From an uncultured Candidatus Peribacteria bacterium (GTDB lineage Bacteria > Patescibacteriota > Gracilibacteria > Peribacterales > Peribacteraceae), in NCBI GenBank assembly GCA_964534205.1, contig CAZHQF010000004.1, positions 109,436 to 173,435 of the forward strand: DNA of 64,000 bases, written 5' to 3'. The notes under the pieces were generated by a model. That model was not told where the DNA came from, did no database searches, and was given only the letters and a program-made list of their open reading frames with translations. Shown here piece by piece: positions 4,543-40,700 of this stretch. How positions within the stretch are numbered: the first letter of the stretch is position 1; each line of letters begins with the position of its first letter. Position numbers and translations under genes: made by a program.

Positions 4543-4586
4543 TCATTTAAAGTATAACACAAAAATTGGAAATTTCATAATTAAAA

Positions 4587-5111: not shown

Positions 5112-5179
5112 CTAGAGGAGTTGGAAACCCAGATAAATTTCCGATTACAAAATAACCGACGGTATGCTATAATAATCTG

Positions 5180-7364: not shown

Positions 7365-10300
7365 TCGTTAATTCGGTAAAGAGTAAAGTTGAGAGTCTGG
7401 TTAAGCTTATTCCAACTAAAGAAATGATAACGCGGTGTTAGGTCATCTGTCTCCGTACCATTTGGTAGTGTTCTGCCTTCGCCAAAATTTGAATCAAAAA
7501 CCCATATTCCCTCTGCTGTAACAGATCCTATAAGGAAAGTGTGCTGATAATTATCGAGTGTATATTGAACCATATCGCCAGTAAGCAATTGCTTGGATTC
7601 TGCGAGTTCACTGAGCACTGTTCCCAGAGTACCCTCATCGCTTTCAGTATGACCAGTTGCTATAGCAATAACATCTGTGTTTGAAACCCACTGATACTGG
7701 GCATTTTCCATATTTTTTCCGATATTAATTCCGACTTCCGGATCTTTTAGAATCAATTGCTGTAACCAATATTTACATTGACCCTCTTGAAAGCTTTCAT
7801 AAGGAGTGCCCACCCATGCGTTCGCCTGAGAATCCCAAATCGCTTTGTGCTCATCGGATGCATTTTGGCCAAGGAAGTGTTCAAGAAGGAACTTGATTGT
7901 CGCTGTTGCTTTTGCGCGATCGGGACTCAGGCCGGTAAATGAAAGTGCTTCGAGCACTCTCTGTTTATCCTGTGCATCCAGCGCATCAAAATCGGCAACA
8001 TACTGTCTGGCGATATCTTCGGTAGCTTGGTCATTTATCGATGCGGTAATAGTGCTCACAGATTGTGGAAACATGACATTCACGAATATTTCTGCCTCAC
8101 GGTTTGTGCCACCACCAAGACCCTCCACATTCTCGCCTGTTGATTGCAAAAGGGCAAGTTTTAGCCTAAAAGCTCCTGCTAAGTTCCCGTTGATGCCAGC
8201 ATAAGCCAGAGACTGCATTGGAATTTTTGCAGTATATCCTCCTTGAAATAGAGGTGTGAGTGCAATGCCTCCCCCTTGATGATTCATGCCAATTTGAAAT
8301 CCAAATTCGCTGAGGAGATAGAATGTTCCACCTGAATACAGATTTGTTGTAGTGCTAAAATTTTGCGGCAAAAGGAGATCAAACTTCACAGGAATCATCG
8401 CATTAGGATCAGTGTGATCAAAAGCACCGAGAATGACTTTAGCAACCTCAGGTTTTTCAGGAGCAATTGACGATGATGCTGTCGAAGGAACAAAAAGATG
8501 ATCAAGTCCGGCTATTGCACAAGTTGTCCAAAAAGTTCTAAAGGAACGCGAAGGATCACTTGTCGTGATAGCAAAATTCGCTTGCAGCAATTCACCTGAC
8601 ACTCCCAATAGTCGCTCAGCAATAGCTATTCGTAGCCGCAATTCCCCAATCGAAGTGTCCGCTGCAGATTGAAATAATCCTGTGAGTATCCTTCCTGCAA
8701 CGGTGTCTGTACGCATTTTTTGTCCTTCAAATTCTAAAGCAGAATTCCTGAACCAGGAGAATGCAATAATCTGCAATTGTGAAAGAGGAAGATTATTCAC
8801 TGCCTCGCGTGCATCAACGAGAGAGATCGTATTTTCACTGGCTTGAGTATCAGTGGCATAACCAACAAGTGAAGATGTAAACCCCAATGTCTGTCTAACT
8901 TGTATCTCTGACGTACCAGTGAATGCCGCCAACTGCCCCCAGGAAAGTTCGCGTCCAACAGACCTTGCATAATTATGGAGCGGTACAATGGCATCAGCGG
9001 GTGCCGCCGCGTGGCTGAGGAGAATCACATTCACTGTATGATTGAACGCCGCATCCGACACCTCATTCGTGTCCGCCGGATCCTCATGTTCACTCACCCT
9101 GTGCGTCCAGTTGAGGATCATCTGGTAATAGGCGGATTCCTCGGCTTTGCGCATCTCCACCGCCGCATTCGCATCTGAGCATCTGCACTCCAGGCACTCC
9201 CGGATCTGCTCTGCGGTGGGGAAGCCCGGATAGGAACACTGGAAGCGGGAGAAATCGAAGATGCCCGGCTCCTCCCCGGCATCGCGTCTCATGAGCCAGG
9301 TGTGGTAATCCGAGGCGGCGTTCAGAAGGCGTTCCGAGGCATCGAAGACCTCGTTCCAGACCTGCTCCTCCTGGAACGCGCCCGGATGCCCACCCAGCGC
9401 ATAGATCTGGGCAAAACGCTGCTGCAGCACCTGGTTCTTTGCGCTTGCGAGCAGCTCATTGGTGAAGGCCAGCAAGCCGACTGCAGACCAGATAGAGGAA
9501 GCGACGTTGCGGGCGATGGAATATTCCCCCACCGTGACAGGCTCGATATGCGGCGCGACGGACATGACGAGCGCGGCACTCTCCGCCTGCGCAACGGCGA
9601 GATCCTCCGCATCAGGAACAACGGCAACATCAATGGATGCATCTAGGAGACGCGGGAAGCTCTCCGGCAGAAGCTGCAGCGTCCGTAAGGCCGGATGCCA
9701 CTGTGCATACAGAGACTCTTCCTCGATACGCTGACCGTCGACGAGGACAGACACGCGATACATGCGGTTGCCATCCATGGTCACCGTGCCATTCATCGTG
9801 CCGTGGAAGGGCACAGAGACCGTGACGAAGGATTGCTCTTCATCACGGGTGACCGTGGCACCGAGTTCGAGGCGCACCCAGCCGCCAGGACCGTTAAGCA
9901 TGATCTCCGGCTGCACTTCCTGACCCTCAAGGACAAAAACTCTCAGGACAAGCTTGTTCCTGTTCACACCGAGAATGGAAACGGTGTTCCGCAGTGGCAC
10001 CTCCGTCTCCTCCCGCGCGAACAGATCCTGCGCTGCGATGAGAGCGTTCTCCAGACGCGTGATCCGATTCGCTGCCCCGTTCATCCTGTTCTGCGCCTGC
10101 TCCACGTCCCAGTCCGTCGCCTGGTTCTGATGACGCCGAACGAGGACCGTGTGTAGTTCCTGCTGAAGGGTGGATAGTGAATTTTCGGCTTCAGTAAGCG
10201 CAAATTCAAGGACAGGAATCGCGTGTGCGGCGGCGAAGCGGTTGCCTTCCGTAAGACCGGAGAGAATCTCCTGAAGCACAGGATTGGATTCCGCTGCCGC

Positions 10301-11758: not shown

Positions 11759-12484
11759 TTACTTTTGGGCTCCCAACCTCCTCTGCAACTTCTTCAGCGC
11801 CCAGAGCTCCTTGAACATGTTCACAATCACGTAGAGCTTGGCACCGGTGGGGTTCCCCGCCGTGCGCGGGTAGTGCGGCACATCCACCTGCGCCCACTCG
11901 ATCCCCTGCATCTTGAGGCGCAGGAACATCTCGGTGTTGAAGAGTTTTTCATACCCGACGGTCGGGCGGATGGAAGGCCAGAGGTCCCTGAAGTAACACT
12001 TCATGCCGCAGTTCACATCGCGCACCCAGAGGCCGAGGACGATCCAGTTCATGAGACCGAGCACCTTGCCGAACATGTTGCGGATAAAAGAATCCGCGCG
12101 CTTGCGGCGGCGGCCGGTGGCAAAGCGGTGGGTTTCGAGGAGCGGGAGGAGTTTCTCCAGATCCTCGGGCTTGAACTGTCCGTCGGAATCCATGAAGGCG
12201 ATCACCTCCTTGGTGGCGGTATCGCAGCCGGCGCGGATGGCTCCGCCGTAGCCCTGGTTTTTGGTGTTGTGGATCACGCGCAGGTGCGTGTCCTCTTTCG
12301 CCATGGCATCCAGGAGTGCGCCCGTGCGGTCGCGCGAGCCGTCATCCACGGCGATGACTTCGCCGTCCATCCCTGTGCGCGCAAGCCAGGCAAGGCACGC
12401 GCGGACGGTGACAGGCACATTGTCCTCCTCGTTGTAACACGGGAGGACCAGGGAGAGGGAACGCACGGACATCCGGGGCATCAT
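11759..12484 (-). CDS. Family-2 glycosyltransferase (polyprenyl-phosphate sugar synthase type, DPM1/ArnC/GtrB-like)
   Basis: LSLVLPCYNEEDNV, VIAVDDGSRDRT, GYGGAIRAG and MDSDGQFKPEDL motifs. Confidence 0.9.
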   Translation of the reverse strand: MMPRMSVRSLSLVLPCYNEEDNVPVTVRACLAWLARTGMDGEVIAVDDGSRDRTGALLDAMAKEDTHLRVIHNTKNQGYGGAIRAGCDTATKEVIAFMDSDGQFKPEDLEKLLPLLETHRFATGRRRKRADSFIRNMFGKVLGLMNWIVLGLWVRDVNCGMKCYFRDLWPSIRPTVGYEKLFNTEMFLRLKMQGIEWAQVDVPHYPRTAGNPTGAKLYVIVNMFKELWALKKLQRRLGAQK

Positions 12485-12534: not shown

Positions 12535-14331
12535 TCAGCTGAGCGGAAAAAGGGAGATGATCACGATAAACACCGCCGAAAGGGCGGATAGCACTACAAA
12601 AGGAGTGGAAGCGGCAGGGCGCAGCCACTTGAGCCGCGGGTGCAGGCGGTCGGTGGCGAGGAGGGCAAAGGCCAGGAGCGGCAGCAGGGCCAGGAAGGAA
12701 TACCGGAAATCCTGGGAGGAGGAGTACGGGTACCGGATACGGAAGAACAGGTGACCGAAGAGACACGCACCGGCAACGAGCCACAGCGGCATGGTTTTAC
12801 GGATGTTGCCGAAGAAGGAGACGAGCATCCCGAGCGCCGAGAACAAGGCGGTGAACAGACCCGAGATCAGGATGGCGCTGCTGAGGAGCCGCAGCTGCAG
12901 GCTGAAGGTGAACTCCCCGAAGAACGCGGACCGGAAGAGGTATTCCCAGAAGAACTGACGCCCCGCGTCGTCGCCCCACGGGTTGTTGTACACGATCGTG
13001 GCGATCCGCTGGGGGTTGAAGACCGTTAGATTCTGGAGCGTGTTTTGCACGAGCAACCCGGAGTTGAGGTTGCCGATGTTCCCCACGAGCATCTCGTGCT
13101 CTCCCTGGAACAGACGGAAGGCATAGAGCCATCCGCAGAGAAGGAAGAGGATAAGGAGCATCGATCCCGTGAGGGATGCTTTCCGCTTCCACGGGAGCCT
13201 GGGCCGGAGCAGTAGCGCAAGGAACGCGGCGGGAACGAGCAGCAGGGCGTTGCCTTTGGTGAGGATGCCAAGGCCGATGCAGACGGCAACGGCGCTCCAC
13301 TCCCCGTCTTTGGCGTTCTGCCAGAACCGCAGGAGGAAGTAGAAGGCGGCGGTCATCCACAGCTGCAGGAGCACATCGTTGTTGATGCGCGCGGCAAAGA
13401 GGATGAGTCCGGGGAACGTGGCGACGACCGCAGCGAAGAGCAGCCGTTCCATCCGCTGCCGCTTCAGCGGGAACAGGAGCGGCGCGCACGCGCACGCAAA
13501 GCAGAGCGTGAGAATGCTCGCGATGAGCGCACCGGTCTGGATATCGGTGAGAATCGCCTCGTTGCTGCGACCGAAGAACTCCGCGACCGCCATCCAGCCG
13601 CCGGCGGCGGCGTAGTAGAGAGGAGGCTGATAGAACTGCCAGCCGCCGTGCGGCGGAGGGATGGCCGCGTGGTCGGCCATGTAGCGGATGTACTGGATGT
13701 GCCCGTCGGTATCGTGGCCGCGCAGGGAGTACGGCGTGCCGGTAACATAGAGGATGCGCAGCAGGATGCCGGCACAGAGAAGCGCAACGAAGAGGCCGTC
13801 CGTCTTGCGTGTGCGGATGAGCGGGTACAGCTGCAAAACAAACGCAATCAGGAGCGCGAGCGCCGTGAGGTTGAACGTGAGAGTGACGGGATCGAGAGCC
13901 GCAATGCGCACACTCAGTCCGCCGGGTCCGCCGTCGTTGCGGATTTTCACGGTGATGCTGTTGTCTCCGGTGTGAAGGTAGGGGCCCAGATTGAGCACAC
14001 TGCCCTTGCTGTAATCGCAGAAGGGAATCCCCTGCTCGGTAACAAGGACGCTGTTCACGATGACACTCTCCACGCAGTCATCGGGGATGAACTGATAGTA
14101 CGTGGGCATGAGGGAACCCACCGTGAGCGTGAACGTGGCTTCGGCGGTGCTGTTGCCTTCCGAACTGAAGGAGAGCGGCAGCGTGAAAGGCTGCGCATCG
14201 AACCAACCGTCCATGCGGTAACTGCCGGTCCCGAATTCCGGCACCGCCTGCGACCACAGCGTCAGCAGGAGTGCAAACGCCGCAAGAAAGATGCCCGTGC
14301 AGATGCCGATACGGCGGAACCGCAACGTCAT
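12535..14331 (-). CDS. GT-C fold, PMT/ArnT-like (family 39-like) polyprenyl-phosphate-dependent glycosyltransferase with an extra N-terminal extracytoplasmic domain
   Basis: 598 aa with more than 10 TM helices. First-loop motif GHDTDGHIQYIRYMADHAAIPPPHGGWQFYQPPLYY is typical of PMT_2-type enzymes. About 130 aa of non-membrane sequence lie between TM1 and TM2. Confidence 0.7.
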   Translation of the reverse strand: MTLRFRRIGICTGIFLAAFALLLTLWSQAVPEFGTGSYRMDGWFDAQPFTLPLSFSSEGNSTAEATFTLTVGSLMPTYYQFIPDDCVESVIVNSVLVTEQGIPFCDYSKGSVLNLGPYLHTGDNSITVKIRNDGGPGGLSVRIAALDPVTLTFNLTALALLIAFVLQLYPLIRTRKTDGLFVALLCAGILLRILYVTGTPYSLRGHDTDGHIQYIRYMADHAAIPPPHGGWQFYQPPLYYAAAGGWMAVAEFFGRSNEAILTDIQTGALIASILTLCFACACAPLLFPLKRQRMERLLFAAVVATFPGLILFAARINNDVLLQLWMTAAFYFLLRFWQNAKDGEWSAVAVCIGLGILTKGNALLLVPAAFLALLLRPRLPWKRKASLTGSMLLILFLLCGWLYAFRLFQGEHEMLVGNIGNLNSGLLVQNTLQNLTVFNPQRIATIVYNNPWGDDAGRQFFWEYLFRSAFFGEFTFSLQLRLLSSAILISGLFTALFSALGMLVSFFGNIRKTMPLWLVAGACLFGHLFFRIRYPYSSSQDFRYSFLALLPLLAFALLATDRLHPRLKWLRPAASTPFVVLSALSAVFIVIISLFPLS

Positions 14332-18000: not shown

Positions 18001-21000
18001 CGAGCCGGGTTGGAAACATCCATGATCGTGAGGATGGAAGTATCCTGGTTGGTGACGTACGCGTAACGGCCCTGGACGTAGACGGCCTCGGGCGTAAAGA
18101 GACCGGTGCTGATGCTGAAGATCTGCACCGGATCAGCGGGGTCGCTGACATCAAATGCGTTGAGGGTATGAGCGTAAAGATCGGTGACGTAGGCATAATT
18201 GCCCTGGACGTAGACATCCGACGGATACGAGAGGGCGAGCGTGCTTGCCGAGGAACCGGCGGAACTGTCGCCGCTGCCGGCATCACCGCCGCTGTACGCC
18301 AGGCTGCCTTCCGTGATCCCGCCGCCGCCGAGGGAGCTGGTGTTGCAGAAAATGTTGCCGGAGCTGTCGGTGGCGAGGACGGAACAGTTCGTGAGCCCGC
18401 TGATCTGCACCGTGCTGTCGAAGAAGGCGATGCCGTCGACCTCCAGCGATTGCTCGATAAAGACATCGCTGTAACCGTCGAGCCCGTGGCCGGCCATGCT
18501 GCTGCCATTGGTCGCAAAGAAGCTGTAGGGCACCAGGTTTGACACGCCGCCGACATGGAGGTTGCCGTTGACATCTAGGGTGGCGTTCGGTGCGCTGGTG
18601 TTGATGCCGACCATTCCCATATCCAGAATGCGCATGCGCTCGGTATTGTTGGTACGGAACGCGAGGTGCGTGCCGTCGGTGGTACCGACGAATTGGGCGG
18701 AGGCGTTGATTCCGCTGTTGCCGGTCAGCGCCCAGAAATCGCCGCCGGCCGAACTGGTGTTGCAGTACACATTGCCCGAAACGTCGGTGGCCAGGAACGA
18801 ACAGCTGGTGATCGCGCTGAACGTCAGCGAGTTATCAAAGAATGCGGCGCTGTCCACCTCGAGAGAACCGGAGATGTAGAGGTCATCGGTGGAATCAAGA
18901 TTGGTCGCAACGGAGGAATCGTTGGTGGTGATCTTGTTGTACGAGGCGGAGGTAGTGGCACCGCCGACGATAAAGGTGTGCCCGAGACGTACGCCGGTAT
19001 CGAAGAAGGCATAGCCGTCGACTTCCAGCGCACCGCCGATATACAGGTCATCCGACGTATTGATCTGGTCGGACGCGGTGTGGCTGGCAACGCTGGAATC
19101 GTTGTTGCTGATCAGGTTATAGCCTGCGTTGCTCGTGGTGGATCCGCCGACGACGAAGGTGCCGCCAAGTTTGAGAAGATTGAGAGAGTCGTTATAGAAG
19201 AAATTGGTGTTGTCTTGAGCGAGAACGCCGGAGGGGCCGAGGAAGAGAACGGAGCCTTGCGTACCCGAACCGACAGCATCACCGATCGAGGCGGCACCGC
19301 CACCGTCCGTGCCGCAGGTGAGCACACCGTTGGCCGTTTCCAGGGCGGTACAGTTGGCGTAGTTGTTAAGGTAGGCAAGGCCATCGACGATGAGGGAACC
19401 GGAAGACCGGAGCGAATCCTGTGCGTGCACGGTGCGTCCGGACGCGGTGCCCCTCACTTCCGCGCCGCCTGCACCGGTGAAGTGGAAGCCATCGGAGGAG
19501 TTGTAGCCCATGACCCCCTCGCTGACGGAGGTACCCATATGGACGCTGGTGCCACTGATGTACAGATCCCTCCAGCGATTGGTGTTGGAACCCAGGTCAT
19601 ACGTGGCATCCGCGGTCGGGACCACGTGACCGGTGATGTATGCACCGGACTGCAGGCGTGTGGTGCTGCGGACGATGAGCGTGCCGGAGCTGCGCAGCTG
19701 ATCCTGAGCATGAACGATTGCTCCGGAGACGGTGGTGAACTCAAGGAGAGAACCGGTGATCGTGGTATTCAGTGTGAAGACGTTGCTCGTAAGTGTCAGG
19801 CCGCGGCCGGCGAAGTATGAGGAACCGTCGTCGGTGCCGCAGGTGATGAGACCGTTGACAGTCTCAAGCGCAGTGCAGTTGGCGTAGTTGTTGAAGTACA
19901 CGGCACCGTCCACGAGGAGGGAACCGGATGCACGGAGCTGATCCTGCGCGTGAATCACCCGGCCGGAGGCGGTGCCGATGATCTCCAGCTTGAGGTTGGT
20001 ATCCACCGTGGAGGAACCGATGTTCACGGATCCGAGCAGGTAACTGTTGCCGGCCATCACCGTGAGTGCCGCACCGGAGAGGGTGCCGCGGGTGGTGAGG
20101 TTGCCCTTCACGAGACCGGTGCTCTGGACCACGAGGGTTCCCGAAGAAGCGAGACGGTCCTGGGCGTGGAGGACACGGCCGGAGGCCATGCCGATGATCT
20201 CCAGGGAGACGCCGGTGTCCGCGGCGGACGATCCGAGGTTTCCGTTTGCATTGATGATCATGGCACCGGAGAGGGCCAGACGGGAACCGGGACTGGCCGT
20301 ACCGAGGCCGAGGCGGTAGTTGGTGGTGTCGGTGTAGAGGAGCGGATACGGACGCGTGGTACGGATGACGAGCGCACCGGAGGATTCCAGCTTGTCCTGC
20401 GCGTGTATCACACGGCCGGAAGCGGTACCGATGACCTCCAGCTTGAGGTTGGTATCCACCGTGGAGGAACCGATGTTGACGGAGCCCAAGAGGTAACTGT
20501 TGCCGGCCATCACCGTGAGTGCCGCACCGGAGAGGGTGCCGCGGGTGGTGAGGTTGCCCTTCACGAGACCCGTGCTCTGGACCACGAGGGTGCCGGAGGA
20601 GGCAAGGCGGTCCTGGGCGTGGAGGACACGGCCGGAGGCCATGCCGATGATCTCGAGTTTGACGTTGGTGTCGATGGCGGTGGACCCGAGGTTGAGGGGA
20701 CCCAGGAAGGAGCTGTTGCCGCTCATGATGGTGAGCGCACCGCCGGAGAGCGTGTTGCGGGCGGAGACGTTGGTATTGGCGTACAGGTTGTTGACGGAGA
20801 TGTTATTGGAGAAGTTGCCGTCGACGCTAAAGATGTTCGACCAGCGGTTGGTGGAGTTGCCGAGTGCGTAGCTGTTGTTGGCGGCGGCGAGGATGCTGGT
20901 ATTGGCCGAACCGTTGAAGGAGATGTTGTCACCGGCGGCGTCACCGAGGGAGACGTTGCCGTTGGCAAAGAGGTTGCCGGAGAAGTTGCCGGTACCGGCA

Positions 21001-24000
21001 TAGAGGCCGTTCCAGCGGTTGGAGGTGTTGCCCAGGTCGTAGGTGACGTTGGCGGCGGGCAGGAGGCTCGTGTTGAACAGACCGTTGGCGGCAATGTTAT
21101 CGGAGGTGGCGTCACCGAGACCCACGTTGCCGTTCATGTTCACGTTGCCGGAGAAGTTGCCGGTGTTGGCGTAGAGGTTGTTCCAGCGGAGAGACGTGTT
21201 ACCCAGGTCATACGTGGCATTGGAGGCGGGGATGAAGTTGGTGCTCACGTTGCCGTTGAAGTATGCGCTGCCGTCGACGATGAGGGAGCCGGAGGAACGG
21301 AGGATGTCCTGGGCGTGGAGGATGCGGCCGGAGGCGACGCCGAGGACTTCAAAGAGGATGCCGGAATCGAGGAAGGCGGTGCCGTTGCCGGAGCGGATGA
21401 TGAGACCGCCGGTCATGGTGTCACCGGAGACGTTCACGTACCTGCTGTCTGCGGTGGTCTGGGAGAGGCCGCCGGCCGAGCCGCAGGAGAGGGCACCGGC
21501 GGAATCGGTCTGGAGGGCAGAGCAGTTGGTGAGGGACTTGAAGGTGACGCCGCTCTGGACCACGAGGGTGCCGGAGGAGGCAAGGCGGTCCTGGGCGTGG
21601 AGGACACGGCCGGAGGCCATGCCGATGATCTCGAGCTTGATGTTGGAATCGTAGTTGGTGGACCCAAGGTTGAGGGGGCCCAGAAACGAGCTGTTGCCCG
21701 CCATGATGGTGAGCGCACTGCCGGAGAGGGTGTTGCGGGCGGAGATGTTGGTCGCCGTGACATTGGTGGCGAAGTTGCCATTCACCGCGTACAGGGTGGC
21801 CCAGCGGTTGGAGCTGTTGCCGAGGTCGTATGAGTTGTTTGCAGCGAGGAGGATGCTGGTGTTCGCAAGACCGTTGAAGGAAACGTTGTCGGCTGCTCCG
21901 TCACCGAGACCCACGTTGCCGTTCATGTTCACGTTGCCGGAGAAGTTGCCGGTGTTGGCGTAGAGGCCGTTCCAGCGGTTGGAGGTGTTGCCCAGGTCGT
22001 ACGTGACGTTGGCGGCGGGCAGGAGACTCGTGTTGAACAGACCGTTGGCGGCAATGTTGTCGGAGGTGGAGTCGCCCAGGGAGATGTTGCCCTGGAGGAA
22101 GGAGTTGCCTTCCACGGCGAGAGCGCCGGAGGAACGCAGGAGGTCCTGCGCATGAACGGTTGCACCGGAGACCGTTGTAAATTCAAGGAGAGAACCGGTG
22201 ATCGTTGTGTTCAGAGTGAAGACGTTGGAACTGACGGTGAGCCCCCTGCCTGCAAGGTAGGTGGTACCGTCGTCAGTGCCACACGTGACAAGGCCGTTGA
22301 CGGTCTCGAGAGAGGTGCAGTTTGCGTAGTTGTTGAAGTACACGGCACCGTCGACGAGGAGGGAGCCGGACGCACGGAGAACATCCTGGGCGTGGAGGAC
22401 GCGGCCGGAGGCGGTGCCGATGATTTCCAGGGCAAGACCTGTATCAGCTGTCATGCCCGTCGTGCCGGTGGAATTAATGATCATGGCGCCGGAAAGCGCG
22501 AGCTTGCTGCCAGGTGCATTGGTATTGATACCAATGTTGTCGGTGGAAGCATCCAAGAAGAACAGGTTGGACTTGGTGTCACCCTCGATGCGGAAGTCAG
22601 TGTTGCCGGCGTCGTTATTGAAGACGATTTCGGACGTACCTAGGTCCATAAGGTTGACTGTCGTGCTGTACGCGTTTGTGGAGTTGTATAGGACAAAAGT
22701 CCCGCTTGCCTCAATGCGCCAGCTGTTATTGCCATTGTTGCGATTGAAATCAATATACGAAGTGTGGCCGTTGGTGCCGTGCAACGTGAGCTTGGGAATC
22801 CCGGTGGATGCGATGGTGAGATCCGACGTCGGAGCGGCTGTCCCGATACCGACGCGCCCATTGGTGACATCGGTATAGAGGACCGGATTTGTCGTAGTAG
22901 AGCGCACGACGAGCGCACCGGAGGCTTCCAGCCTGTCCTGGGCGTGGAGGATGCGGCCGGAGGCGGTGCCGATGATCTCGAGCTTGAGGTTGGAATCAAC
23001 GGTGCTGGAGCCGAGGTTGAGGTTTCCGAGGAGGTAGCTGTTGCCGGCCATCACCGTGAGTGCTGCACCGGAGAGGGTGCCGCGGGTGGTGAGGTTTCCT
23101 TTGATGAGACCAGTGGTATCGACGACGAGTGAGCCGGAGCTCCGTAGCTGGCTGCGGGCATACACCGTCATGCCGGAGAGGGTCTGGAAGTTGACGAGCG
23201 AACCGGTGATCGTGGTGTTGAGACGGAAGCCCGTGCCGGTGAGGGTGAGGCCTTGGCCGGCGCTGTAGGAAGAGCCGTTATCCGTACCGCAGGTCACAAG
23301 ACCGTTGACGGTCTCGAGCGCGGTACAGTTTGCGTAGTTGTTGAGGTACACGACCCCATCGACGAGGAGAGAGCCGGAGGAGCGGAGCTGGTTCTGCGCA
23401 TGGATCGTGCGGCCGGAAGCGGTACCGATGACTTCGAGACCCTCCTGGATGAAGACATCGGCATCGTCGAAGTATCCGGACCAGGCGACGGCCCCCGTGG
23501 CGGTGGCGTAGATGCCGTAGGCCGCCGAGCCGGGGCTGTTGAGGTCTTCGGCCATCGCGGCCCCAAAGTAACCGCCATAGACGAGATCGATACCGTTGCC
23601 GGTCCGGCCCGCCATGGTCATCACGGCGGTGGCGTCGATACCGTAGACCTTGCGGTTCACGGCCGATCCCACGCCCGATGTCGTGGCATCCCCGACATGA
23701 GAGGCGGACACGGAGATGCCCGCCTGAACCATCGTATGCAGAGACCCTTCGTCGACGGAAAGCGTACGCTGGCTATCGCTGTTCACATACAGGCCGTAGT
23801 CTGTGGGGCCGAAATTCGTCGTCGTCACCTCTTCCGGCATGTCCGCATCGATGTACACCCCCGTCAGCCCGCTGTCATAGGTGCCCGGCAGCTGATTCTG
23901 CGTGCTGACGTAGAGCAAGCCGTCGTCCGGCATGGCGGTACCGATGCCGACCCTCTTGTTGGTGGCGTCGTACACGAGACCGTTGGTATCGACCACGAGA

Positions 24001-27000
24001 GTGTTGCCGGTGTTGGTGCCGGAGCGCTTCTTGATGGCGAGCGCGCCGGTCATGGTGTCTCCGGAAACGTTGACGTACCGGGAATCGAAGGATGCGCGCA
24101 GTGATCCGGTGGAAGTGAAGAGCACCCCGTAATCCTCCAGTGAGCTGACATCTCCGCATTCCACGCTTCCGGCATCGTCGGTGATCAGCAGCGGGCAACT
24201 GACAAAGACGGAATCCAGGAGGCGGAATCCGTTCTCGATCGCAAGGTTGTAGATGTAAGCCCCGCTGTTGAGGTACGCGTTACCGTCCACCGCGAGCACT
24301 CCGCTGGAGGCGAGTCTGTTGTTGGCGAAGAGTGTGGAACCGGAGACGGTGGTGAATTCGAGGAGGGAGCCGGTGATGGTGGTGTTCAGGGTGAAGACGT
24401 TGCTCGTGAGGGTGAGGCCGCGGCCGGCGACGTACGACGTTCCGCCATCATCCGTGCCACAGACGATCTGACCGTTGGAAGTTTCCAGAGAGGTGCAGTT
24501 TGCGTAGTTGTTGAAGTACACGGCACCGTCGACGAGGAGGGAGCCGGAGGCGCGGAGCTGATCCTGGGCATGGAGAACACGGCCGGAAGCGGTGCCGATG
24601 ATCTCGAGCTTGAGGTTGGAATCAACGGTGCTGGAGCCGAGGTTGAGGTTTCCGAGGAGGTAGCTGTTGCCGGCCATCACCGTGAGTGCTGCACCGGAGA
24701 GGGTGCCGCGGGTGGTGAGGTTTCCTTTGATGAGACCAGTGGTATCGACGACGAGTGAGCCGGAGCTCCGTAGCTGGCTGCGGGCATACACCGTCATGCC
24801 GGAGAGGGTCTGGAAGTTGACGAGCGAACCGGTGATCGTGGTGTTGAGACGGAAGCCCGTGCCGGTGAGCGTCAGACCCTGCCCTGCCCCGTACTGCGAA
24901 TTGGAGTCGGTGCCGCAGACGAGGTCGCCGTTGGAGTTGGTATCGAGCGTGTTGCAGTTGGTGAGAGCGGTCAGACGGACGGTACCCTGCAGGAAGGAAT
25001 TGCCTTCAACGGCGAGGACACCGGAGGAAGCAAGGCGGTTGTTTGCGGTGACTGTAGAGCCGGAGATGGTCTGGAATGTGAGGGAGGAGCCGGTGATGGT
25101 GGCGTTGAGTCTGAATGACGTTCCGTTGAGCGTCAGGCCCTGGGCGGCGGTGTAGGTGGTGTTGTCGTCGGTGCCGCAGACGAGATCGCCGTCCGCGTCG
25201 GTCTCAAGCGCGGTGCAGCCGAAGAAACTGGCGTTGAGGAGCTTGATCGGGGCGCTGCTGCCTGCATTGATCGTGCCACCGAAGAAGGAGTTGCCTTCGA
25301 CCGCAAGAACTCCGGAGGAGGTGAGACGGTCAGTGGCAGAGACGAGGGAGCCGGAGACAGTGGTGAATTCCAGGAGCGAACCGGTAATTGTCGTGTTGAG
25401 CGTAAAGACACCGGCGGTGAGCGTGAGTCCCCTGCCGGCGAAGTACGACGTTCCGCCATCGTCCGTGCCACAGACAATCTGACCGTTGGAGGTTTCCAGA
25501 GCGGTGCAGTTTGCGTAGTTGTTGAAGTACACGGCACCGTCCACGAGGAGAGAGCCGGAGGAACGGAGCTGATCCTGTACATGAACGATGCGGCCGGAAG
25601 CCGTACCGAGAACCTCGAGGAGAACACCGGCATCGACTGTGACAGTGCCGTTACCGGAGCGGATCGCGAGAGCTCCGGTCATCGTGTCGCCGGAGACGTT
25701 CACGAAACGGTTATCGAAGTAGGTCGTGAGCGAGCCGGTACCGAACGATGCGCCGCCTGCACCCGTATCATCCGTGCCGCAGACAATCTGGCCGTTGGAG
25801 GTCTCAAGCGCGGTACAGTTCTGATAGTTATTGAGGTACACAACGCCGTCCACAAGCAACGAGCCCGACGAGCGGAGACTGTCTTGGGCGTGCAGAACGC
25901 GTCCGGAAGCCGTTCCAAGAACATTCAGACCGCCATCGAGCTGCACGGATCCATCCACCTCCAGTGATCCTTCGATGAAGAGATCGTCGTCGGAATCGAT
26001 GACATCGGTGTGGCTTGCGCTGCCCGAATCGGAAATGATGTTGTAGGCCCGGGCTCCGACACCTCCCACATTATAGGTACCAACGACTGCGATACCGGAA
26101 GCGAAGTTCACGGAGTTGTCGTAGTAACTGATGCCATCGACCTCGATGGTGCCGGCGATGAAGAGATCATCATCGGAATCGAGGCCGCCGCCGCCCGCGT
26201 GGGAGGCCGCGCCGGAATCACTGATGATGTTGTAGACCTGCGAGGCGGCGCCGCCGACATTGAAAGCACCTTCGACCGTGAGGGATCCGGACGACAGAAG
26301 ATTCGTACGCGCAAAGACGCTGGAACCGGAAACCGTCGTGAAATTCACCAGGGAACCGGTGATTGCGCCATTGAGACGGAATGCCGTGCCGTTGAGCGTG
26401 AGGCCCTGAGCCGCCGAGTATGTGGTGCCCTCGTCGGTGCCGCAGACCAGATTGCCGCTGGGATCGGTATCGAGCGAATTACAGTTCGTAAGAGCGGCGA
26501 GGCGGACCGTCCCCTGGAGATACGAGGTGCCTTCCACGGCGAGAACGCCGGAGGACGTGAGGCGGTTGGCGGCGGAGATCGTGGAACCGGAGACTGTCTG
26601 GAACGAGACGAGAGAACCCGTGAGCGTGCCGTTGAGGCGGAAGACGTTTCCGGTGAGACCGATCCCCTGGCCCGCAACGTACGTGGAACCTTCGTCCGTG
26701 CCGCAGCTGAGGTTGCCGTTGGCATCGGTATCGAGCGTGTTGCAGTTCTTGAGTGTGGAGACGGTGAGTGTTGCACCGGAGAGGTTGCCGCGGGTGGTAA
26801 GGTTGCCCTTGAAGAGACCGGTCGTCTGAACGATGAGCGAACCGGAAGAGCGCAGGGTGTTGTTTGCAAACAACGTGGTACCGGACACGGTCTGGAAATT
26901 CACAAGCGAACCGGAAATCGAGGAGGCGAGGCGGAAGCTGTTGGACGTGAGCACGAGGCCCTGGGCGGCGGTGTACGTGGTGCCTTCGTCCGTGCCGCAG

Positions 27001-28766: not shown

Positions 28767-31700
28767 TCATTCCTGTCCACTTTCGGGCACCGGCTCGCTC
28801 GATGCAGGCGCAGCTTCCGGCTGCGCTGAACCCTCTCCTGCATCGGAGGTTGTCACCGGCTCGGCGGGAGCCTCCGATATCTCCTCGGGTTCTTCTGCGG
28901 GAGTGTCCGTCGTCGCAGTGTCTTCCGTCGGCAATTCCTCAACAGGTGTCTCCGTAGCAGGCTCTTCCGTTGTCACGGGAACCTCATCCGCCGGAGCATC
29001 ATCAGACGGAACGGACAGCCCGTCGGTGATCACAGGAATCTGCACGGTGGCTGCGTAGCCGTCTGGCAAAAGCAGGAGCGGCGGTGTGGTCTGCGTGTTC
29101 CACGTGAAGGTGATCTCAAGATCCGGATGCGTCCACACATAGTCGGTGTGGTAGCGGCTGCACGAGAGCGGATTTCCGTCGGTATCGAGCGTGACGAGAT
29201 TTCTGATACAGGAATTCCAGACGTTATTGCTCGAGAGCGGCACACCGAAGGCATCCACCGGGAAGGCAATCGAGTTTTCCGCATCTGTAACGGCAGATCC
29301 GCTGGCACTCATCTGCGGGTCGTTGGCGAGGATCGCGGTCCAGGCAAAGTCATAATTCTCGGCAGCGGGATTTTTGAGTTCGATCGTGAAGCCCGTGGAC
29401 GTCGCCGGCGTGATCCTCCACGGACCTTCCACGAAGCTCAGCGGCGTGACATTCACGACCGGCGCGAGCGTGAGATCGTGCGTGAAACGCACGGTGACCA
29501 TGGTCTGACCGGTACCGATGCGGGCGAAGCCCGCGTGGCGGTTGCTGACGCGGAGTTCACCGGAAATTTCGACATCACCGAGGAACTGTGCGAGACCATC
29601 GATGGTGATGGGCCCAAGCACGTGGAGCGCGTTTTTGACGACCAGGTTGCCGAAGTCCACGGTGGAACCGGAGGCGAAGTTGAGCAGAGCGCCGGATGCC
29701 AGATCGAGTGAGCCCTGGATCAGGAGCGTGCCGCCGATCGTGGCACCGGAGGAGACGGAGAGGTGATCCGTATCAACGGACGACGCGGTGAGTGCGCCAT
29801 CGATCGTCACGATGCCCGGGATGAAGAGGCTCTGCACCTGCAGCACTCCGTCGAGCGCAAGATCACCGGCGATGCGTGCATCCCCGCCGACCATGAGCGT
29901 GTCCTCCACGTTGAGCGTGGAGGCGGTGAGATCGGAAACGCGTGCCGCAGAACCGGAGAGCGGGTTTTCTACCCGCGGATCGGAAGCAATAATTTGGCTT
30001 CCTGTAGCGGTTTCCTGACTGTCCACAAGAGCCCCCGAGAGCGCGGCTACCTGCTCGCTCAACGTGGTCAGCCTGGAAGACAGGTCTGCAATGTTGAGTG
30101 CGGCGACCTGGCGGTTCACCTCTTCACTGATCGGGAGCATCAGCGTGCCCGAGGCGGAGAAGTTCTCCACGGCCTCCTTGAGCGAGAGTTCAATCTCGTC
30201 CTCGATGCGCAGATCCTTCACCGCCTGCAACACGCGGTCCGTGACGGCTTCCGTGGTGAGCGAACCGTTGCGGCGCGCCACAAGGACACTGATGAGCCCC
30301 GTGGTTCCCTCGGGACCATCGAGGCCTTCAAGAGCCACACCGACCGTCGGCTCCCCTGCCTCGGCACGGCGCGCGTAGCCCGGTGTGAGAGCGGGGGTGA
30401 GCGAATCTCCCGGACGGATCACCGCACCGGATTCCACAATGACTTTGGCCGGGATCTGACCGATGAGACCGACGAGCGTGTATCCCGGCACCGGCAGACC
30501 TTCCTTGAACATCGAGAACCAGCCGCCACCCGTCACGTCGTTACCCACGAAGGACGGGTTGGTGGTGACGATACCCATCACATTCGGGTCGGCCGACCCG
30601 CGGCAGCGCTGGACGGTGCTGCTCTTGGTGGCATCGATACAGACCAATTCGCCGCTCTTGAGGTCGCTGTCCGAGGCTTTGAACCACTCGGCGTAGTCGG
30701 CACCGGGGGCGACATGCGTGGTGTCGGCAGCCGGGTAGAAGTAGAACTTGGTGAGTTCCAGGTGATAGTTTGAGCTGGAGGCGTTCTTGGTGTTCACGAC
30801 ACCCTTGAGGATGTGGTAACCATCACCCGTGATCGTGACGGTATCTGTTTTCACCACGTTGTAGGTGGTGGACGCCGTGTACCAGTCTTGTCCGGTTTCC
30901 ACGAGAACCCCGTCGATGTACCAGTCCACTTTGGCGGAGGCGTTGGTTGTCGCTCCGAGAGCGGCGAACGTGTAGCTACCGGCCCGGAGATAGAAACCGT
31001 TCGTAAACGCATTGCCGTCGGCAGGGGTTGTATGGCGGTTAAAGCTGGCATACTGCTGGCTGCTGTCCGTGCGTGATGTCATTGCCGATCCTGCCACGGA
31101 GATACTTTCCTGATGCCACATCACGGCACGGTCCGGGTACGTGGTGCCCGTTCCGGTGCCCACCTGCACCATCCTCCAGCCTTTCTTGCCCGTACTGTCA
31201 CCGACAAGGTTACCCATATTGACGTAGGCAAAGCCGCGCTTGTTATCGAGGTAGAGCGAGCCCGTGCTGGCCTGCACAAGGTTGTACGGCGTGCCGGAAC
31301 CGGAGTAGATGCCGGCGTTGCGGTTGTACGTGTTGTCGTTCAGACGGATGAACTCGCTGCGGTTCGCGCGGCTGATGACGGCGCCGGAGGAGAGGCGGAG
31401 CACCTGGCCGGACATGGTGCCGACCACCTCGAGCTTCACATTGGAATCGATCGACGTGGCGCCGAGAACGAGGTTATCGCTGGTGTCGTTCAGGAGCACA
31501 AAGGCACCGGCATCGCTGAAGGGCGAAGCTCCCGCCGTGTTATCGATCTGCATCACCGTCATCGTCGGGCGGGCTTCCGTGGTGGTATCCGTGCTGGCAC
31601 CGCCATCGATGTAGACGTACATTTCCAGGTAATCTCCGGCAACAAGATCGAATGTGTCGACCACTGTGGCAGTCACCTGATAGCCGGAACTGCGAGCGAG

Positions 31701-34700: not shown

Positions 34701-37700
34701 CACAAGACCGTCGGCAATGAGCGAGCCCGAGGAGCGAAGGATGTCCTGGGCGTGGAGGACACGGCCGGAGGCCATGCCGATGATCTCGAGTTTGACGTTG
34801 GTGTCGATGGCGGTGGACCCGAGGTTGAGGGGACCCAGGAAGGAGCTGTTGCCGCTCATGATGGTGAGCGCACCGCCGGAGAGCGTGTTGCGGGCGGAGA
34901 CGTTGGTATTGGCGTACAGGTTGTTGACGGAGATGTTATTGGAGAAGTTGCCGTCGACGCTAAAGATGTTCGACCAGCGGTTGGTGGAGTTGCCGAGTGC
35001 GTAGCTGTTGTTGGCGGCGGCGAGGATGCTGGTATTGGCCGAACCGTTGAAGGAGATGTTGTCACCGGCGGCGTCACCGAGGGAGACGTTGCCGTTGGCA
35101 AAGAGGTTGCCGGAGAAGTTGCCGGTACCGGCATAGAGGCCGTTCCAGCGGTTGGAGGTGTTGCCCAGGTCGTAGGTGACGTTGGCGGCGGGCAGGAGGC
35201 TCGTGTTGAACAGACCGTTGGCGGCAATGTTATCGGAGGTGGCGTCACCGAGACCCACGTTGCCGTTCATGTTCACGTTGCCGGAGAAGTTGCCGGTGTT
35301 GGCGTAGAGGTTGTTCCAGCGGAGAGACGTGTTACCCAGGTCATACGTGGCATTGGAGGCGGGGATGAAGTTGGTGCTCACGTTGCCGTTGAAGTATGCG
35401 CTGCCGTCGACGATGAGGGAGCCGGAGGAACGGAGGATGTCCTGGGCGTGGAGGATGCGGCCGGAGGCGACGCCGAGGACTTCAAAGAGGATGCCGGAAT
35501 CGAGGAAGGCGGTGCCGTTGCCGGAGCGGATGATGAGACCGCCGGTCATGGTGTCACCGGAGACGTTCACGTACCTGCTGTCTGCGGTGGTCTGGGAGAG
35601 GCCGCCGGCCGAGCCGCAGGAGAGGGCACCGGCGGAATCGGTCTGGAGAGCGGAGCAGTTGGTGAGGGACTTGAAGGTGACGCCGCTCTGGACCACGAGG
35701 GTTCCCGAAGAAGCGAGGCGGTCCTGGGCGTGGAGGACACGGCCGGAGGCCATGCCGATGATCTCGAGACGGACGTTACTGTCGATGCTGGTGTTGCCGA
35801 TATTCACGAAGCCGGCAGTGACGTTCTGGGAGAAGTTGCCGTTGACGGAGAAGATGTCTGCCAAACGGTTACTGGTGTTGGCGAGGTTGTATGAGTTGTT
35901 GGCAGCGAGGAGGATGCTCGTGTTCACGAGACCGTTGAAGGAGACGTTGTCGGCTGCTCCGTCACCGAGGGCGACGTTGCCGTTGGCAAAGAGGTTGCCG
36001 GAGAAGTTGCCGGTGTTGGCGTACAGAACATTCCAACGGAGGGAGCTGGCGCCAAGGTCATACGTGACGTTCAAGCTGGGAGTGACGTGGCCGGAGAAGT
36101 TTCCGGAGGCGGCAGTGATGTTGCCCGAGAAGTTACCCACGTTGGCGAAAAGGTTGTTCCAGCGGTTACTGGAGTTGCCAAGGTCGTATGTGGCATTCTG
36201 TGAGGGAACGAAGCTGGTGTTGATGAGGCCGTTGAAGTACGCGTTGCCGTCGACGATGAGGGAACCGGAGGAACGGAGGATGTCCTGGGCGTGGAGGATG
36301 CGACCGGAAGCGGTACCGATGATTTCGAGCTTCGCGTCCCCTGCCAGTGCCGCACCGATGGCCACATTGCCTGTCTGGGCGATGGAGAAGAAATCCTCGG
36401 AACCGATGCCGCCATCGGCGGAGATCACGAGCGTGTCCGAGGCGCTACCGTGGTTCGCGATGGTCCACTTGTTCGTGCCCGCTTCCTTGAGCGTGAATCC
36501 GGCATAGCCGTTTGCGCCAGAATCCAAATAGACAAATGCATTGCTTGTATCGGATTCCACGACTATGTCGGTAGAGGCGGAACCGTTGTACAGATGGAGC
36601 TGGGCGAAGGGATTGGTGGTGCCGATACCCACGTAGTTATCGGCGCTGTCGACGTACAGAGTGGAACCATCGAGGTACGTATCCCCTTCCACAAGGAGGG
36701 TGCCGGAGGAGCGGAGGATGTCCTGGGCGTGGAGGATGCGGCCGGAGGCGGTGCCGATGACTTCAAGCTTTGCATTTGCGACATCGCCGAACAGGTTGTC
36801 TCCCATAGTGATATTGCCGCTGGAGTCCACCTGCATTTTGATCTCACTTCCCCTGTAAAAGTAGATCGGGGCGGCCTCCTGATTGCCAATGGAAAGTGAT
36901 GTGCCATTGACTTCCAGGAACGAACCGTCTGTGGACGCCGTTCCCGTCCAGGCGTTGGTCAAGAGGAGACGCGCGGGAGTGGTGATAGATGAAGAGTGAA
37001 TTTGTACTGGGGCGGCGGGCTCTGCAATACCCACGCCAACACGCTTATTGGAAGCGTCGTACACGAAGCCCGCTGTATCTATAACAAGAATGTTTCCTGT
37101 GGAAGTCCCTGCATATTTCTTGACTACAAGGGCACCGGAGGAAAGGAGAGAGTTTCTGGCAAAGACGGTGGCACCGGAAACGGTGGTGAACTCGAGGAGA
37201 GAACCGGAGATGGTGGTGTTGAGGGCGAGAGCGCCGTTGAGGGTCCTGAGACCCTGGCCGACGGAGATGGAACCCGTGTCATCCGTACCACAGACAATCT
37301 GACCGTTGGAGGTTTCCAGAGCGGTGCAGTTGGCGTAGTTGTTTAGGTACACAGCACCGTCGACGAGGAGGGAGCCACTGGAACGGAGGATGTCCTGCGC
37401 GTGGAGAATGCGACCGGAGGCGGTGCCGATCACCTCAAGTTTGGTGTCCGCACTGAATGCGCCCATGGAGATGTTGCCGTCACCGCCAACACGGAGCATG
37501 GGGCTGGTGCCAGCGCCGTTCATCACAATCAGGCCGTAATCGGAAGCATTGGTTCCTCCGTAGATGCGCACACCGGAACCGAGCGTGGAATAGACATCGA
37601 GACCCAGGTATCCGGCGGTGGTAGTAATGATCTCAAGACCGCTCTTATTGGTGGGAGCGGTGATACTCATGGCAAAATTGCTGTTGGTAGCCCCGATACC

Positions 37701-37783: not shown

Positions 37784-40700
37784 TCAGCTGGTCCTGAGCG
37801 TGGACCGTTGCACCGCTGACAGTCGTGAACTCAAGGAGTGAACCGGTGATGGTGGAGCTGAGACGGAAGCCCGTGCGGTGAGAGTAAGACCCTGACCTGC
37901 GGCATACTGGGTACCTGCGGTGTTGCTGGAACAGACGAGGTTGCCGGAGCTGTCGGTGGTCAGGCGGCCGCAGTTGTTGAAGCCGCCGGAGGTGAGGCGG
38001 AGGCCGGACTGCAGATATGTCTGTCCTTCGACGGAGAGTGAGCCGGATGAGAGCAGCTGGCTGCGGGCGAAGAGCGTGGAGCCCGAGACCGTCGTGAACT
38101 TAAGCAGGGAGCCGCTGATGGTGGAGCTGAGGCGGAAGCCCGTGCCGGTGAGAGTAAGACCCTGGCCGGCGGAGTAGCTCTTGCCGACGCTCGTGGCAGC
38201 GGAGCAGACGAGGTTGCCGGAAGAGTCGGTGGTGAGGACGCCGCAGTTGTTGAAACCCGAAACGATGCGAATACCCGAATTGGCCTGCAGCATGTCGTCG
38301 CCAGCAAAGAAGCCGTCGCCGTAGATGCGCCCGTCGCCATCGACTCCCAGTTCAGTTATGCCGTCGTAGCGAACATCAAGAACATACGTAGCTGGATCAT
38401 CAGCAGCCATATCGAGCACGAGTGCTGTCGTGGCATCCGAATTGTAAATGGTCATCGCAACATCGTTGTCTGAGACAACACTTACCTGACCTTGCAGATA
38501 GGTTTCCCCCTCCACGGACAAGGTTCCACTGGAGGTCAGTCTGCTCTTCGCGGTCACTGTTGAACCGGAAACCGTCTGGAAGCGAACGAGCGAGCCGGTG
38601 ATGGTGGAGTTCAGCTTGAAGCCCGTGCCGGTGAGAGTAAGACCCTGGCCGGCGGAGTAGCTCTTGCCGACGCTCGTGGCAGCGGAGCAGACGAGGTTGC
38701 CGGAAGAGTCGGTGGTGAGGACGCCGCAGTTGTTGAAGCCGCCCGAAGCGAGACGGAGGCCGCCCTGGAGGAAGGTGTTGCCGTCGACGGCGAGGACGCC
38801 GGAGGAGGTCAGACGGTTCGTAGCAGAGACCGTCGCACCGGAGACGGTTGTGAACTCAAGGAGGGAACCCGTGATCGTGGCGTTCAGTCTGAATGACGTA
38901 CCGTTCAAGGTCAGACCCTGAGCGGCGGTATACGTGGTGTTATCGTCGGTGTCACAGACCACGTCTCCATCGGCATCGGTGGAAAGTGCCGTGCAGTTGT
39001 TGAATCCACCGGAGGCGAGCTTGAGGCCGGAAGAGAGAGTCGTGTTGCCGGTGACCGCGACAGTCCCCTGCAGGAAGGAATTGCCTTCCACTGCGAGGAT
39101 GCCGGAGGAGGTCAGACGGTTCGTTGCGGAAACCGTTGCACCGGAGACAGTGGAAAATTCGAGGAGAGAGCCGGTGATGGTGGTGTTCAGCGTGAAGACG
39201 TTGCCCGTGAGTCCAAGACCGCGACCTGCGGCGTACGTGGTGTTGTCATCAGTGCCACAGACCACATCACCATCAGCATCGGTCTCGAGGGTGGAGCAGT
39301 TGTTAAAGCCACCAGAGGAAAGCTTGAGGCCGTTCTGCAGGTAGGTGTTCTGCATGACGGCAAGCGTGCCGGAGACGGAGAGGTTGCCCTTCAGGATAGA
39401 GTTGTTCTCCACGACGAGAGCGCCGGAGGAACGCAGATAGTTGGCAGCGAAGACCTGGGAACCGGAGACGGTCTGGAAACGGACAAGGGAGCCGGTGATC
39501 GTGGCATTGAGACGGAAGCTGGTGCCGTTGAGGGTCAGGCCCTGGGCTGCGGTATAGGTTGTGTTGTCGTCGGTGTCACACGTGATGTTTCCAGAGGAAT
39601 CCGTGGAGAGTGCCGTGCAGGAATTGAATCCGCCGGAAGCGAGACGCAGACCAGACTGCAGAATCGAATTGCCCTCGACGAGGAGCGTGCCGGAGCTGCG
39701 CAACTGATCCTGCGCGTGCACAGTCGCGCCAGAGACCGTGACAAATTCGAGGAGGGAGCCGGTGATCGTCGCGTTGAGACGGAAGCTCGTGCCGTTCAGA
39801 GTCAGGCCCTGTGCAGCGGTGTACGTCGTGTTGTCATCCGTGTCACAGACGATGTCACCGGACGAGTTGGTGGAGAGAGCTGTGCAGGAGTTGAAGCCGC
39901 CGGACGCGAGCCTGAGGCCGCCCTGGAGGAAGGCGTTGCCATCGACGGCGAGAACGCCGGAGGAAGTGAGACGGTTTGCTGCACTGACGAGAGAACCCGA
40001 GACCGTCTGGAAATTCACGACGGAACCGGTGAGGGTTGTGTTGAGAGTGATGACTGTGCCGTTGAGTGTGAGGCCGCGACCGACGGAGTACGTGGTGTTG
40101 TCATCGGTGTCACACGTCACGTTGCCGGAGGAATCCGTGGCAAGAGCGGTGCAACCGTTGAAGCCGCCGGAAGCGAGGCGCAGACCAGAGTTCAGATAGG
40201 CGGTGCCGTCGATGGCCAGAGCGCCGCTGGACTGGAGCGTGTTCTGGGCATGGACGGTAGCGCCGGAGACGAGAGCGAATTCGAGGGTGGAACCGGTGAT
40301 GTTTGCGGAGAGACGGAAGCCGGTGCCCGTGAGGGTGAGGCCCTGCGCAGCGGAGTACTGCGTATTTGTATCTGCATCCGTACCGCACACGAGGTCACCG
40401 TTAGAGTTGGTATCGAGCGTGTTGCAGTTGGTGAGAGCGGTCAGACGTACCGTGCCCTGCAGGAACGCATTGCCGTCGACTGCGAGGACTCCGGAAGACG
40501 TCAGACGATCGGTAGCTGACACTGTTGCACCACTGACCGTAATGAATTCCACAAGCGATCCCGTGATCGTGGCATTCAGCCTGAAGCTCGTACCGTTCAA
40601 GGTCAGACCCTGAGCGGCGGTATACGTGGTGTTATCGTCGGTATCACAGACCACGTCACCATCGGCATCGGTGGAGAGTGCCGTGCAGTTGTTGAAGCCG

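Follow-up and report, generated by a model that had tools for sequence, protein, structure and literature searches.

Ectopic gene conversion and concerted evolution are known from several repeat-rich bacterial surface genes, such as Neisseria opa, Treponema tpr and the MgPa-type repeats of Mycoplasma. We analyzed a 64-kb stretch of the genome of an uncultured Candidatus Peribacteria bacterium (contig CAZHQF010000004.1, positions 109,436 to 173,435; hereafter called the window), in which two paralogous giant genes share a nearly identical cassette of about 1 kb. One copy lies in gene g1 and the other in g2, an open frame that directly follows a third one, g3. The cassette was probably shared by very recent, nonreciprocal homologous recombination (gene conversion) between these paralogous giant surface-protein genes. 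As in the opa, tpr and MgPa systems, the locus points to nonreciprocal internal copying between paralogues of the same chromosome, to mosaic genes and to general RecA-type recombination, and the tract of about 1 kb lacks synonymous divergence and ends in conserved blocks. Unlike in those systems, the host is an uncultivated member of the Candidate Phyla Radiation (CPR), the genes are 4.5k to 5.7k codons long, the exchanged unit coincides exactly with a single structural module delimited by a perfect repeat of 48 nucleotides (nt), and nothing points to high-frequency switching driven by immunity or a host.

In Neisseria pilE/pilS and Borrelia vlsE/vls, segments are likewise copied in one direction into a gene for a surface protein, and there, as here, short conserved repeats flank the unit (17-bp repeats in the case of the vls cassettes). 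In contrast to both, the locus has no array of silent cassettes, no G-quadruplex (G4) or other cis element was found (14-47 kb of the window), the likely direction is from an expressed gene to a putative silent copy, and the contigs available, which do not reach the cassette, are without population heterogeneity. A third comparison is with phage tail fibers and spikes, for the evolution of which modular exchange at conserved linkers is typical. The giant proteins resemble them by a motif shared with viral contigs and by matches to a cyanophage fiber and to PHROG families. They differ in being chromosomally encoded in a housekeeping context (TIM, RpiB, Rpe, DprA), in having an N-terminal membrane anchor, in being 10 to 20 times longer and in reaching no curated family threshold.

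Ca. Peribacter riflensis, which belongs to the same class of organisms, encodes very large predicted extracellular proteins with FG-GAP and mannosyltransferase-like neighbors (Anantharaman et al. 2016, PMC4736985), as at the present locus; the proteins described here are not close to anything retrieved (≤59% amino acid [aa] identity). According to that paper, it is in these proteins, to which a role in attachment is ascribed, that strain variation in Ca. Peribacter is concentrated; the between-strain differences that it describes are insertions and deletions of tens of bp and not interparalogue conversion, and assembly of the genomes was made difficult by a long direct repeat (PMC4736985). Few bacterial groups are as rich in huge uncharacterized proteins as the Peregrinibacteria (PMC11573180). 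In the literature, we found no account of gene conversion in the giant proteins of CPR bacteria. The process is known, being textbook homologous recombination that will not surprise a specialist, and what is new is its setting in giant, phage-fiber-like CPR surface proteins.

The shared tract and its paralogous setting

The g1 and g2 copies are aligned at a constant offset of 14133 nt (3 x 4711), which keeps the codon phase. Along this offset, identity rises from about 0.3 to 1.0 at position 20610, stays at 1.0 up to 21515 and then decays. This exact run of 906 bp is the longest at the offset. Extended to the point at which identity collapses, the shared tract comprises 1026 bp (20610-21635 and 34743-35768), is ungapped and contains seven mismatches (99.3% identity). 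These are located at 21516, 21519, 21570, 21573, 21576, 21579 and 21582 and nowhere else in the tract; all seven are synonymous and affect third codon positions. When the window was compared with itself by blastn, the tract appeared as a single ungapped high-scoring segment pair (20586-21635 versus 34719-35768, 98.67% over 1050 bp). It was by far the strongest repeat, the runners-up reaching 93.4% over 362 bp and 89.8% over 305 bp. No additional copies of the cassette were found in the window, and only the two full-length paralogues are present there. A chance origin of the 906-bp run is excluded, because its probability would be about 1e-20 (0.95^906) even at a background identity of 95%, and the true paralogous flanks are only 58-74% identical at the nucleotide level.

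These results bear out an earlier note, which was made by reading the letters and had proposed a near-identical cassette of about 0.96 kb, collinear at an offset of 14133, with few mismatches and an abrupt start of identity between diverged flanks. Exact alignment with blastn, one of the checks that it had suggested, showed a tract identity far above that of the surrounding paralogous sequence (100% in the exact run versus 58-74%). Its limits, 20611-21568, were roughly right and slightly short, 21568 being the place where a cluster of five synonymous differences starts. The boundary strings tcctgggcgtgg and gaccacgaggg were located in the window, the quoted translation of the cassette (minus strand) was correct, and the mismatch given as an example near 21514 corresponds to 21516/21519.

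The copies lie 14.1 kb apart as direct repeats, and each is read in frame from the minus strand. That they reside in two giant genes, as had been noted, is correct, except that the second gene is g3+g2, split by a frameshift. The g2 frame starts 20 nt past the g3 stop codon and is in a different frame. We consider the two to be parts of one ancestral gene of about 5.7k codons that apparently suffered a 1-nt deletion near 37870, because a repeat unit (…GLTLT…F.L…ITGSLLEFTTVSGATVHAQD…) with at least 10 in-frame copies elsewhere spans the g3/g2 junction with a one-base shift. The deletion context, …CTCACCGCAC^GGGCTTCCGT…, is outside any long homopolymer. The g2 frame has remained open over its entire 9 kb, which leaves three possibilities for the frameshift: a very recent origin, an error of sequencing or a reversible change. 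Gene g1 is a global paralogue of g3+g2, with 41% aa identity over most of the length and 57% at the C terminus, and the cassette occupies collinear positions in both.

Synonymous sites are homogenized together with the protein sequence. The synonymous divergence (dS) is 0 in the exact tract (302 codons) and 0.26 in the adjoining 40 codons (21516-21635). Outside the tract, it amounts to 0.64 in the upstream module, 1.57 in the first collinear downstream segment and about 1.0 elsewhere in the genes. Identity with sharp edges, the collinear position of the paralogues and the older homology in the adjoining 120 nt indicate replacement at a homologous site. Together with tract ends in a conserved motif and a chimeric junction in the recipient (see below), they support the proposal of the earlier note that a recent gene conversion or cassette exchange took place between the paralogues.

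Module junctions, age strata and probable direction

The giant genes are chains of modules linked by the junction motif LEIIG(M/T)ASGRxLHAQD-xLxSSGxL, of which 26 copies were counted; g1 in particular is built of many modules bounded by LEIIGxASGRxLHAQD. The cassette module (326 aa) has 'SRYVNVSGDTMTGGL' as its neck motif and 'TLSGGALTIMSGNSS' as its tail, and it also contains an internal junction motif and three YDLGNxSxRW repeats of 57 aa each. We aligned the five M-type copies of the junction motif (aa 2312, 2638 and 2789 of g1 and aa 664 and 990 of g2). Four of the five share an identical 48-nt core, CTCGAGATCATCGGCATGGCCTCCGGCCGTGTCCTCCACGCCCAGGAC, which encodes LEIIGMASGRVLHAQD; the copy at g1 aa 2789 differs from it at one base. 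In g1 and g2 alike, a copy of the core stands at either end of the module. The tract corresponds to one 978-bp module plus one 48-nt core and extends from the outer core edge at 21635/35768 to the outer core edge at 20610/34743. In g1, the perfect repeat that flanks the module is even longer, 84 nt (20574-20657 = 21552-21635).

The two genes part at the gene-3' core. Past it, g1 keeps its usual RLASSGTLVV, whereas g2 changes at HAQD| to its own ILRSSGSLIA, and its junction motif is chimeric (Table 1). Of the M-type cores, g1 contains three, while in g2 they are confined to the cassette ends, and paralogues of the 'TLSGxALTxMxGNS' tail were detected in g1 only. The chimeric junction was found only in g2, consistent with nonreciprocity. 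Because the M-type core and the tail are features of g1 and the chimera is limited to g2, the last event was most likely a transfer from g1 to g2.

We also compared codon identity, given aa identity, among the 26 motif copies (60%) with that in three comparison regions (52-57% and 72%). Nucleotide-level conservation of the junction motif beyond coding needs was rejected by this comparison, and a conserved coding motif would be sufficient to explain the perfect 48-nt cores that flank the module.

Of the 1026 nt of the tract, only the first 120 contain mismatches, and all seven are there. If divergence were uniform, such clustering would have a probability of (120/1026)^7, or about 3e-7; therefore, the tract contains two age strata. 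The five differences at 21570-21582 are not new mutations: the g2 variants match the third motif copy of g1 (20121-20204, 97.6% identical to 35685-35768 in g2). Because these variants recur in g1, at least two exchange events seem to be superimposed at the tract.

To paint the cassette by its paralogues, 120-nt windows were compared with the rest of g1, g2 and g3. The segment at aa 2314-2334 was g1-like and that at aa 2334-2394 essentially unique. The next one, aa 2394-2434, was g2-like (88-93%, versus 83-85% for g1), and the segments at aa 2444-2504 (up to 95%) and aa 2574-2614 were again g1-like. Because the nearest paralogue changes along the cassette, the module itself is a mosaic, produced by earlier exchanges in both directions. 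Further exact patches are present within the giant genes: 281 bp in g1 (22963-23243 = 24589-24869), abutting a copy of the junction motif; 120 bp in g3 (38135-38254 = 38618-38737); 92 bp in g2 (32416-32507 = 34075-34166); and smaller ones of 84 and 80 bp. The three longest probably indicate other recent intragenic conversions or duplications. Because of these patches, the exchange appears to be an ongoing process by which the genes evolve in concert.

Table 1. Positions of the giant genes, the shared tract and its junctions in the window
Feature	Position	Strand	Details
Exact 906-bp tract, g1 copy (g1 aa 2354-2655)	20610..21515	-	Longest exact run; nonsynonymous divergence (dN) = dS = 0 over 302 codons
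Exact 906-bp tract, g2 copy (g2 aa 706-1007)	34743..35648	-	Same sequence as 20610-21515
Older stratum, g1 copy (gene-5' end); 7 synonymous differences from g2 in 120 nt; holds core copy 21588-21635	21516..21635	-	Mismatch list; dS 0.26
Counterpart older stratum in g2; holds core copy 35721-35768	35649..35768	-	
48-nt core of g1, gene-3' module end	20610..20657	-	M-type alignment, exact-match list
Chimeric junction motif in g2 (aa 990-1017), gene-3' breakpoint	34713..34796	-	g1-type core VKLEIIGMASGRVLHAQD (34743-34790), then g2-type ILRSSGSLIA
Third M-type core copy in g1 (aa 2789)	20157..20204	-	1 mismatch to the core; 20 nt downstream carry the 5 synonymous variants of the g2 5' boundary
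g1, giant gene, 4503 aa	15063-28574	-	N-terminal hydrophobic anchor or signal, LVIVD repeats, acidic Pro/Glu-rich C terminus
g2, open frame, 2998 aa, without signal peptide; 3' continuation of g3	28767-37763	-	
g3, open frame, 2710 aa, N-terminal transmembrane segment; 5' portion of the ancestral gene to which g2 also belongs	37784-45916	-	
Putative 1-nt deletion relative to paralogous units, parting the g3 and g2 frames	37860..37880	-	Repeat unit GLTLT.. / ..FRLSSTITGSLLEFTTVSGATVHAQD crosses the junction in shifted frame

In the gene conversion that we propose, one complete 326-aa module would have been copied into the equivalent position of the other gene. The 48-nt junction core would supply the homology for strand invasion and for resolution, such that the tract ends at the outer core edges. 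During break repair or template switching, invasion at one core may have been followed by copying of about 0.93 kb and by resolution at the next core, with no reciprocal exchange. This last event would overlie the older and shorter exchanges in both directions. As a possible outcome, both fibers would display the same module, and g2 would have gained a module type that is otherwise typical of g1.

General RecA-dependent recombination with synthesis-dependent strand annealing (SDSA) would be the simplest mechanism, because no dedicated machinery was found and the synonymous conservation of the motif is at the level of the comparison regions. Complete Peribacteria genomes are reported to encode recA and the Ruv pathway (PMC4736985). 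Among the window open reading frames (ORFs) scanned with Pfam, no reverse transcriptase, recombinase or transposase domains turned up. In the 14-47 kb region, neither inverted repeats of ≥24 nt nor G4 motifs were present. A diversity-generating retroelement was rejected on the grounds that the scanned ORFs contain no reverse transcriptase domain and that the 1-kb repeat differs by seven synonymous third-position changes, where a template/variable repeat pair would differ at adenines. A shufflon or another invertible segment was rejected as well, given the direct orientation of the copies, the lack of such inverted repeats and the lack of a recombinase among the findings.

Alternative explanations

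The identity of the two copies could have been exaggerated, and the abrupt tract created, during assembly, if a short-read assembler, gap filler or polishing step gave one consensus to paralogues that are in truth merely similar (e.g., 95-99% identical). We regard this as unlikely, although several observations fit it and weigh against a gene conversion. The resolved differences are confined to about 120 nt beside a unique flank, as would be expected if a short-read consensus collapsed the interior, and typical Illumina reads or inserts are too short to span the repeat (0.9-1.0 kb). Independent Logan short-read contigs break at motif copies: L176, the only recovered one that enters g1, stops at the copy at 19911, short of the cassette. 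In addition, the 1-nt frameshift between g3 and g2 could be an error. Two other points weigh against the gene conversion itself. No close strain was found for a comparison of breakpoints, the best relatives reaching 59% aa identity among 185k GTDB species genomes and 51% among JGI metagenome contigs, and the direction of transfer is partly ambiguous, because an internal motif of the cassette is g2-like in the painting.

On the other hand, the existence and placement of both copies are secure, since for two direct repeats X-R-Y-R-Z is the only path that uses all segments; a comparable repeat-path argument was made for the assembly in PMC4736985. The copies also agree throughout the 120 nt that border the unique flank on the gene-3' side, where the junction motif is cleanly chimeric. 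Both copies keep their reading frames open, over 4503 and 2998 codons. Two independent Logan contigs from public runs (SRR16481182 and SRR12404957), each covering another part of the window and neither of them the cassette, match it at 100% over 22 kb, which attests to the high base quality of the window; one of the Logan contigs, L001, corresponds to 48727-53602. Even at a true identity of 97%, the tract would stand out from its flanks as a conversion. A short-read consensus could have led to an overstatement of the perfect interior identity. The warning in the earlier note that the repeat is a hazard for assembly is justified: the stop of L176 exactly at a junction-motif copy shows that such repeats fragment short-read assemblies.

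We next consider readings in which the exchange serves a dedicated purpose. In one of them, the 48-nt core is a built-in recombination anchor for the shuffling of phage-tail-fiber-like modules, with g2 as a reversible silent archive, and the host attachment of these episymbionts varies rapidly without any dedicated recombinase. We consider this doubtful. Fully programmed cassette switching, antigenic or related to host range, seems at best equally improbable. Here, the core would be a dedicated anchor, the frameshifted, promoterless g2 a silent module archive, and the exchange with the expressed gene would occur at high frequency, as in pilE/pilS, vlsE or MgPa. Such switching could account for the perfect direct repeats that bound the module in both genes, for the mosaic, bidirectional patchwork with its several other exact patches, and for the recurrence of motif-bounded patches in other Peribacteria (see below); g2, which lies behind a frameshift, also lacks its own start or signal sequence. 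Against it, there is a single archive-like partner, which is an intact 9-kb frame, and no array of truncated silent cassettes. In known antigenic-variation systems of the programmed kind, an array of promoterless partial donor cassettes accompanies an expression site, and none was found in the 64-kb window. The last event probably ran from the expressed g1 to g2, opposite to the direction from an archive to an expression site. The conservation of synonymous sites in the motif is not above background, no G4 motif, inverted repeat or recombinase was detected in the scans described above, and the Logan contigs of the two runs show no population heterogeneity in the parts that they cover, which exclude the cassette.

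An independent replacement of the module in each gene by one and the same foreign fragment, taken up from a related strain by natural transformation, is very unlikely. The window does contain competence-related genes, for DprA and a T2SSE/PilB-type ATPase. However, two identical integrations would be needed instead of one, no external near-identical copy was found in the 185k species genomes or the JGI metagenomes, and an internal origin is more parsimonious because most of the cassette finds its nearest paralogues within g1 and g2 (up to 95%). An ancient duplication held identical by purifying selection on the protein or nucleic acid, for which it could be said that the module encodes conserved fiber-like repeats found across Peribacteria, is effectively refuted by the dS pattern, since 302 codons without a synonymous difference contrast with a dS of 0.26-1.6 in neighboring, equally conserved codons, and protein-level selection does not freeze third codon positions.

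Relatives, gene neighborhood and implications

Full-length homologues of the cassette were found only in Candidatus Peribacteria/Peregrinibacteria (CPR) genomes, and an exact-protein look-up of g1 gave no match. Similar patches are present in giant ORFs of two other Peribacteria metagenome-assembled genomes. In L028 (4469 codons), 5851-6292 and 10561-11002 are 98.6% identical over 442 bp; in L003 (2345 codons), 10264-10595 and 11224-11555 are 95.2% identical over 333 bp. In both genomes, it is again the junction motif, ASGRxLHA(Q/E), at which the patches start or end.

The earlier note called g1 and its paralogue fiber genes. The label is reasonable, and the support for it is weak, consisting of cyanophage and PHROG matches, with no solved relative. 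In a tblastn search, the YDLG repeats matched a fiber of cyanophages P-SSM4/P-RSM3 (30.6% over 158 aa, E 6e-7). PHROG tail spike and fiber families gave weak matches (E 6e-5 to 1e-2; best tail spike, E 5.8e-5), and Pfam End_tail_spike scored 17.8-20.8 bits, below the 25-bit cutoff. The motif SxYVxxSGDTMTGxL was detected in many viral contigs with 50-85% local identity. Curated family matches were limited to LVIVD repeats and a weak choice-of-anchor B domain in g1 and to CBM_35_2 in g2; g3 had none. A PDB search with the single cassette sequence gave no match, and a profile found only bulb-type lectins at nonsignificant E values. These were curculin and neoculin (2d04, 2dpf; E 0.2-0.4), matched by the profile of the junction motif (ASGRxLHAQDxLxSSGxLxV; copies at, e.g., 21558-21641); they are probably noise, but they were the sole PDB signal. 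An AlphaFold2 model of the cassette, based on a 22-sequence alignment, was too poor for a fold search (mean predicted local distance difference test score 51, predicted template modeling score 0.23). Judged by these matches, "fiber-like giant surface proteins" is a reasonable, not a proven, description.

The cassette protein (20610-21635) contains 21 N-x-S/T sequons in 340 aa, compared to 9.0 ± 2.5 in shuffled sequences; the giant proteins overall have about 2.2 per 100 aa. Glycosylation of the surface fibers is possible, because genes for a PMT_2-type (GT-C) and a GT2 glycosyltransferase (12535-14331 and 11759-12484, respectively) are located just downstream of g1.

The setting of the giant genes is one of ordinary cellular genes. 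Metabolic and membrane neighbors in the window include TIM, RpiB, Rpe and a Band_7 protein, and a histidine kinase, an FG-GAP protein and the PMT_2 and GT2 glycosyltransferases are also encoded. DprA, a DNA-processing protein of natural transformation, is encoded at 52250-53506, and the T2SSE/PilB-type ATPase at 1237-2268; their presence is consistent with a capacity of this CPR genome for DNA uptake and recombination. The stretch at 4001-8000 has a G+C content of 0.37-0.42, compared to about 0.60 elsewhere. It contains the histidine kinase gene (5180-6625), a 249-aa ORF without a family match and the end of the FG-GAP gene, and it may have been acquired horizontally.

For Peribacteria, gene conversion of this kind would provide a concrete mechanism of surface-protein variation, in which complete modules of 326 aa pass from one giant paralogue to another by way of the conserved junction motif, with smaller exchanges in the background. 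Short-read assemblies fail to phase the exact repeats of these genes, which reach 0.9 kb, so that module content and apparent strain variation in such genes warrant checking with long reads. The locus is thus a warning for the annotation as well as the assembly of giant repeat genes.

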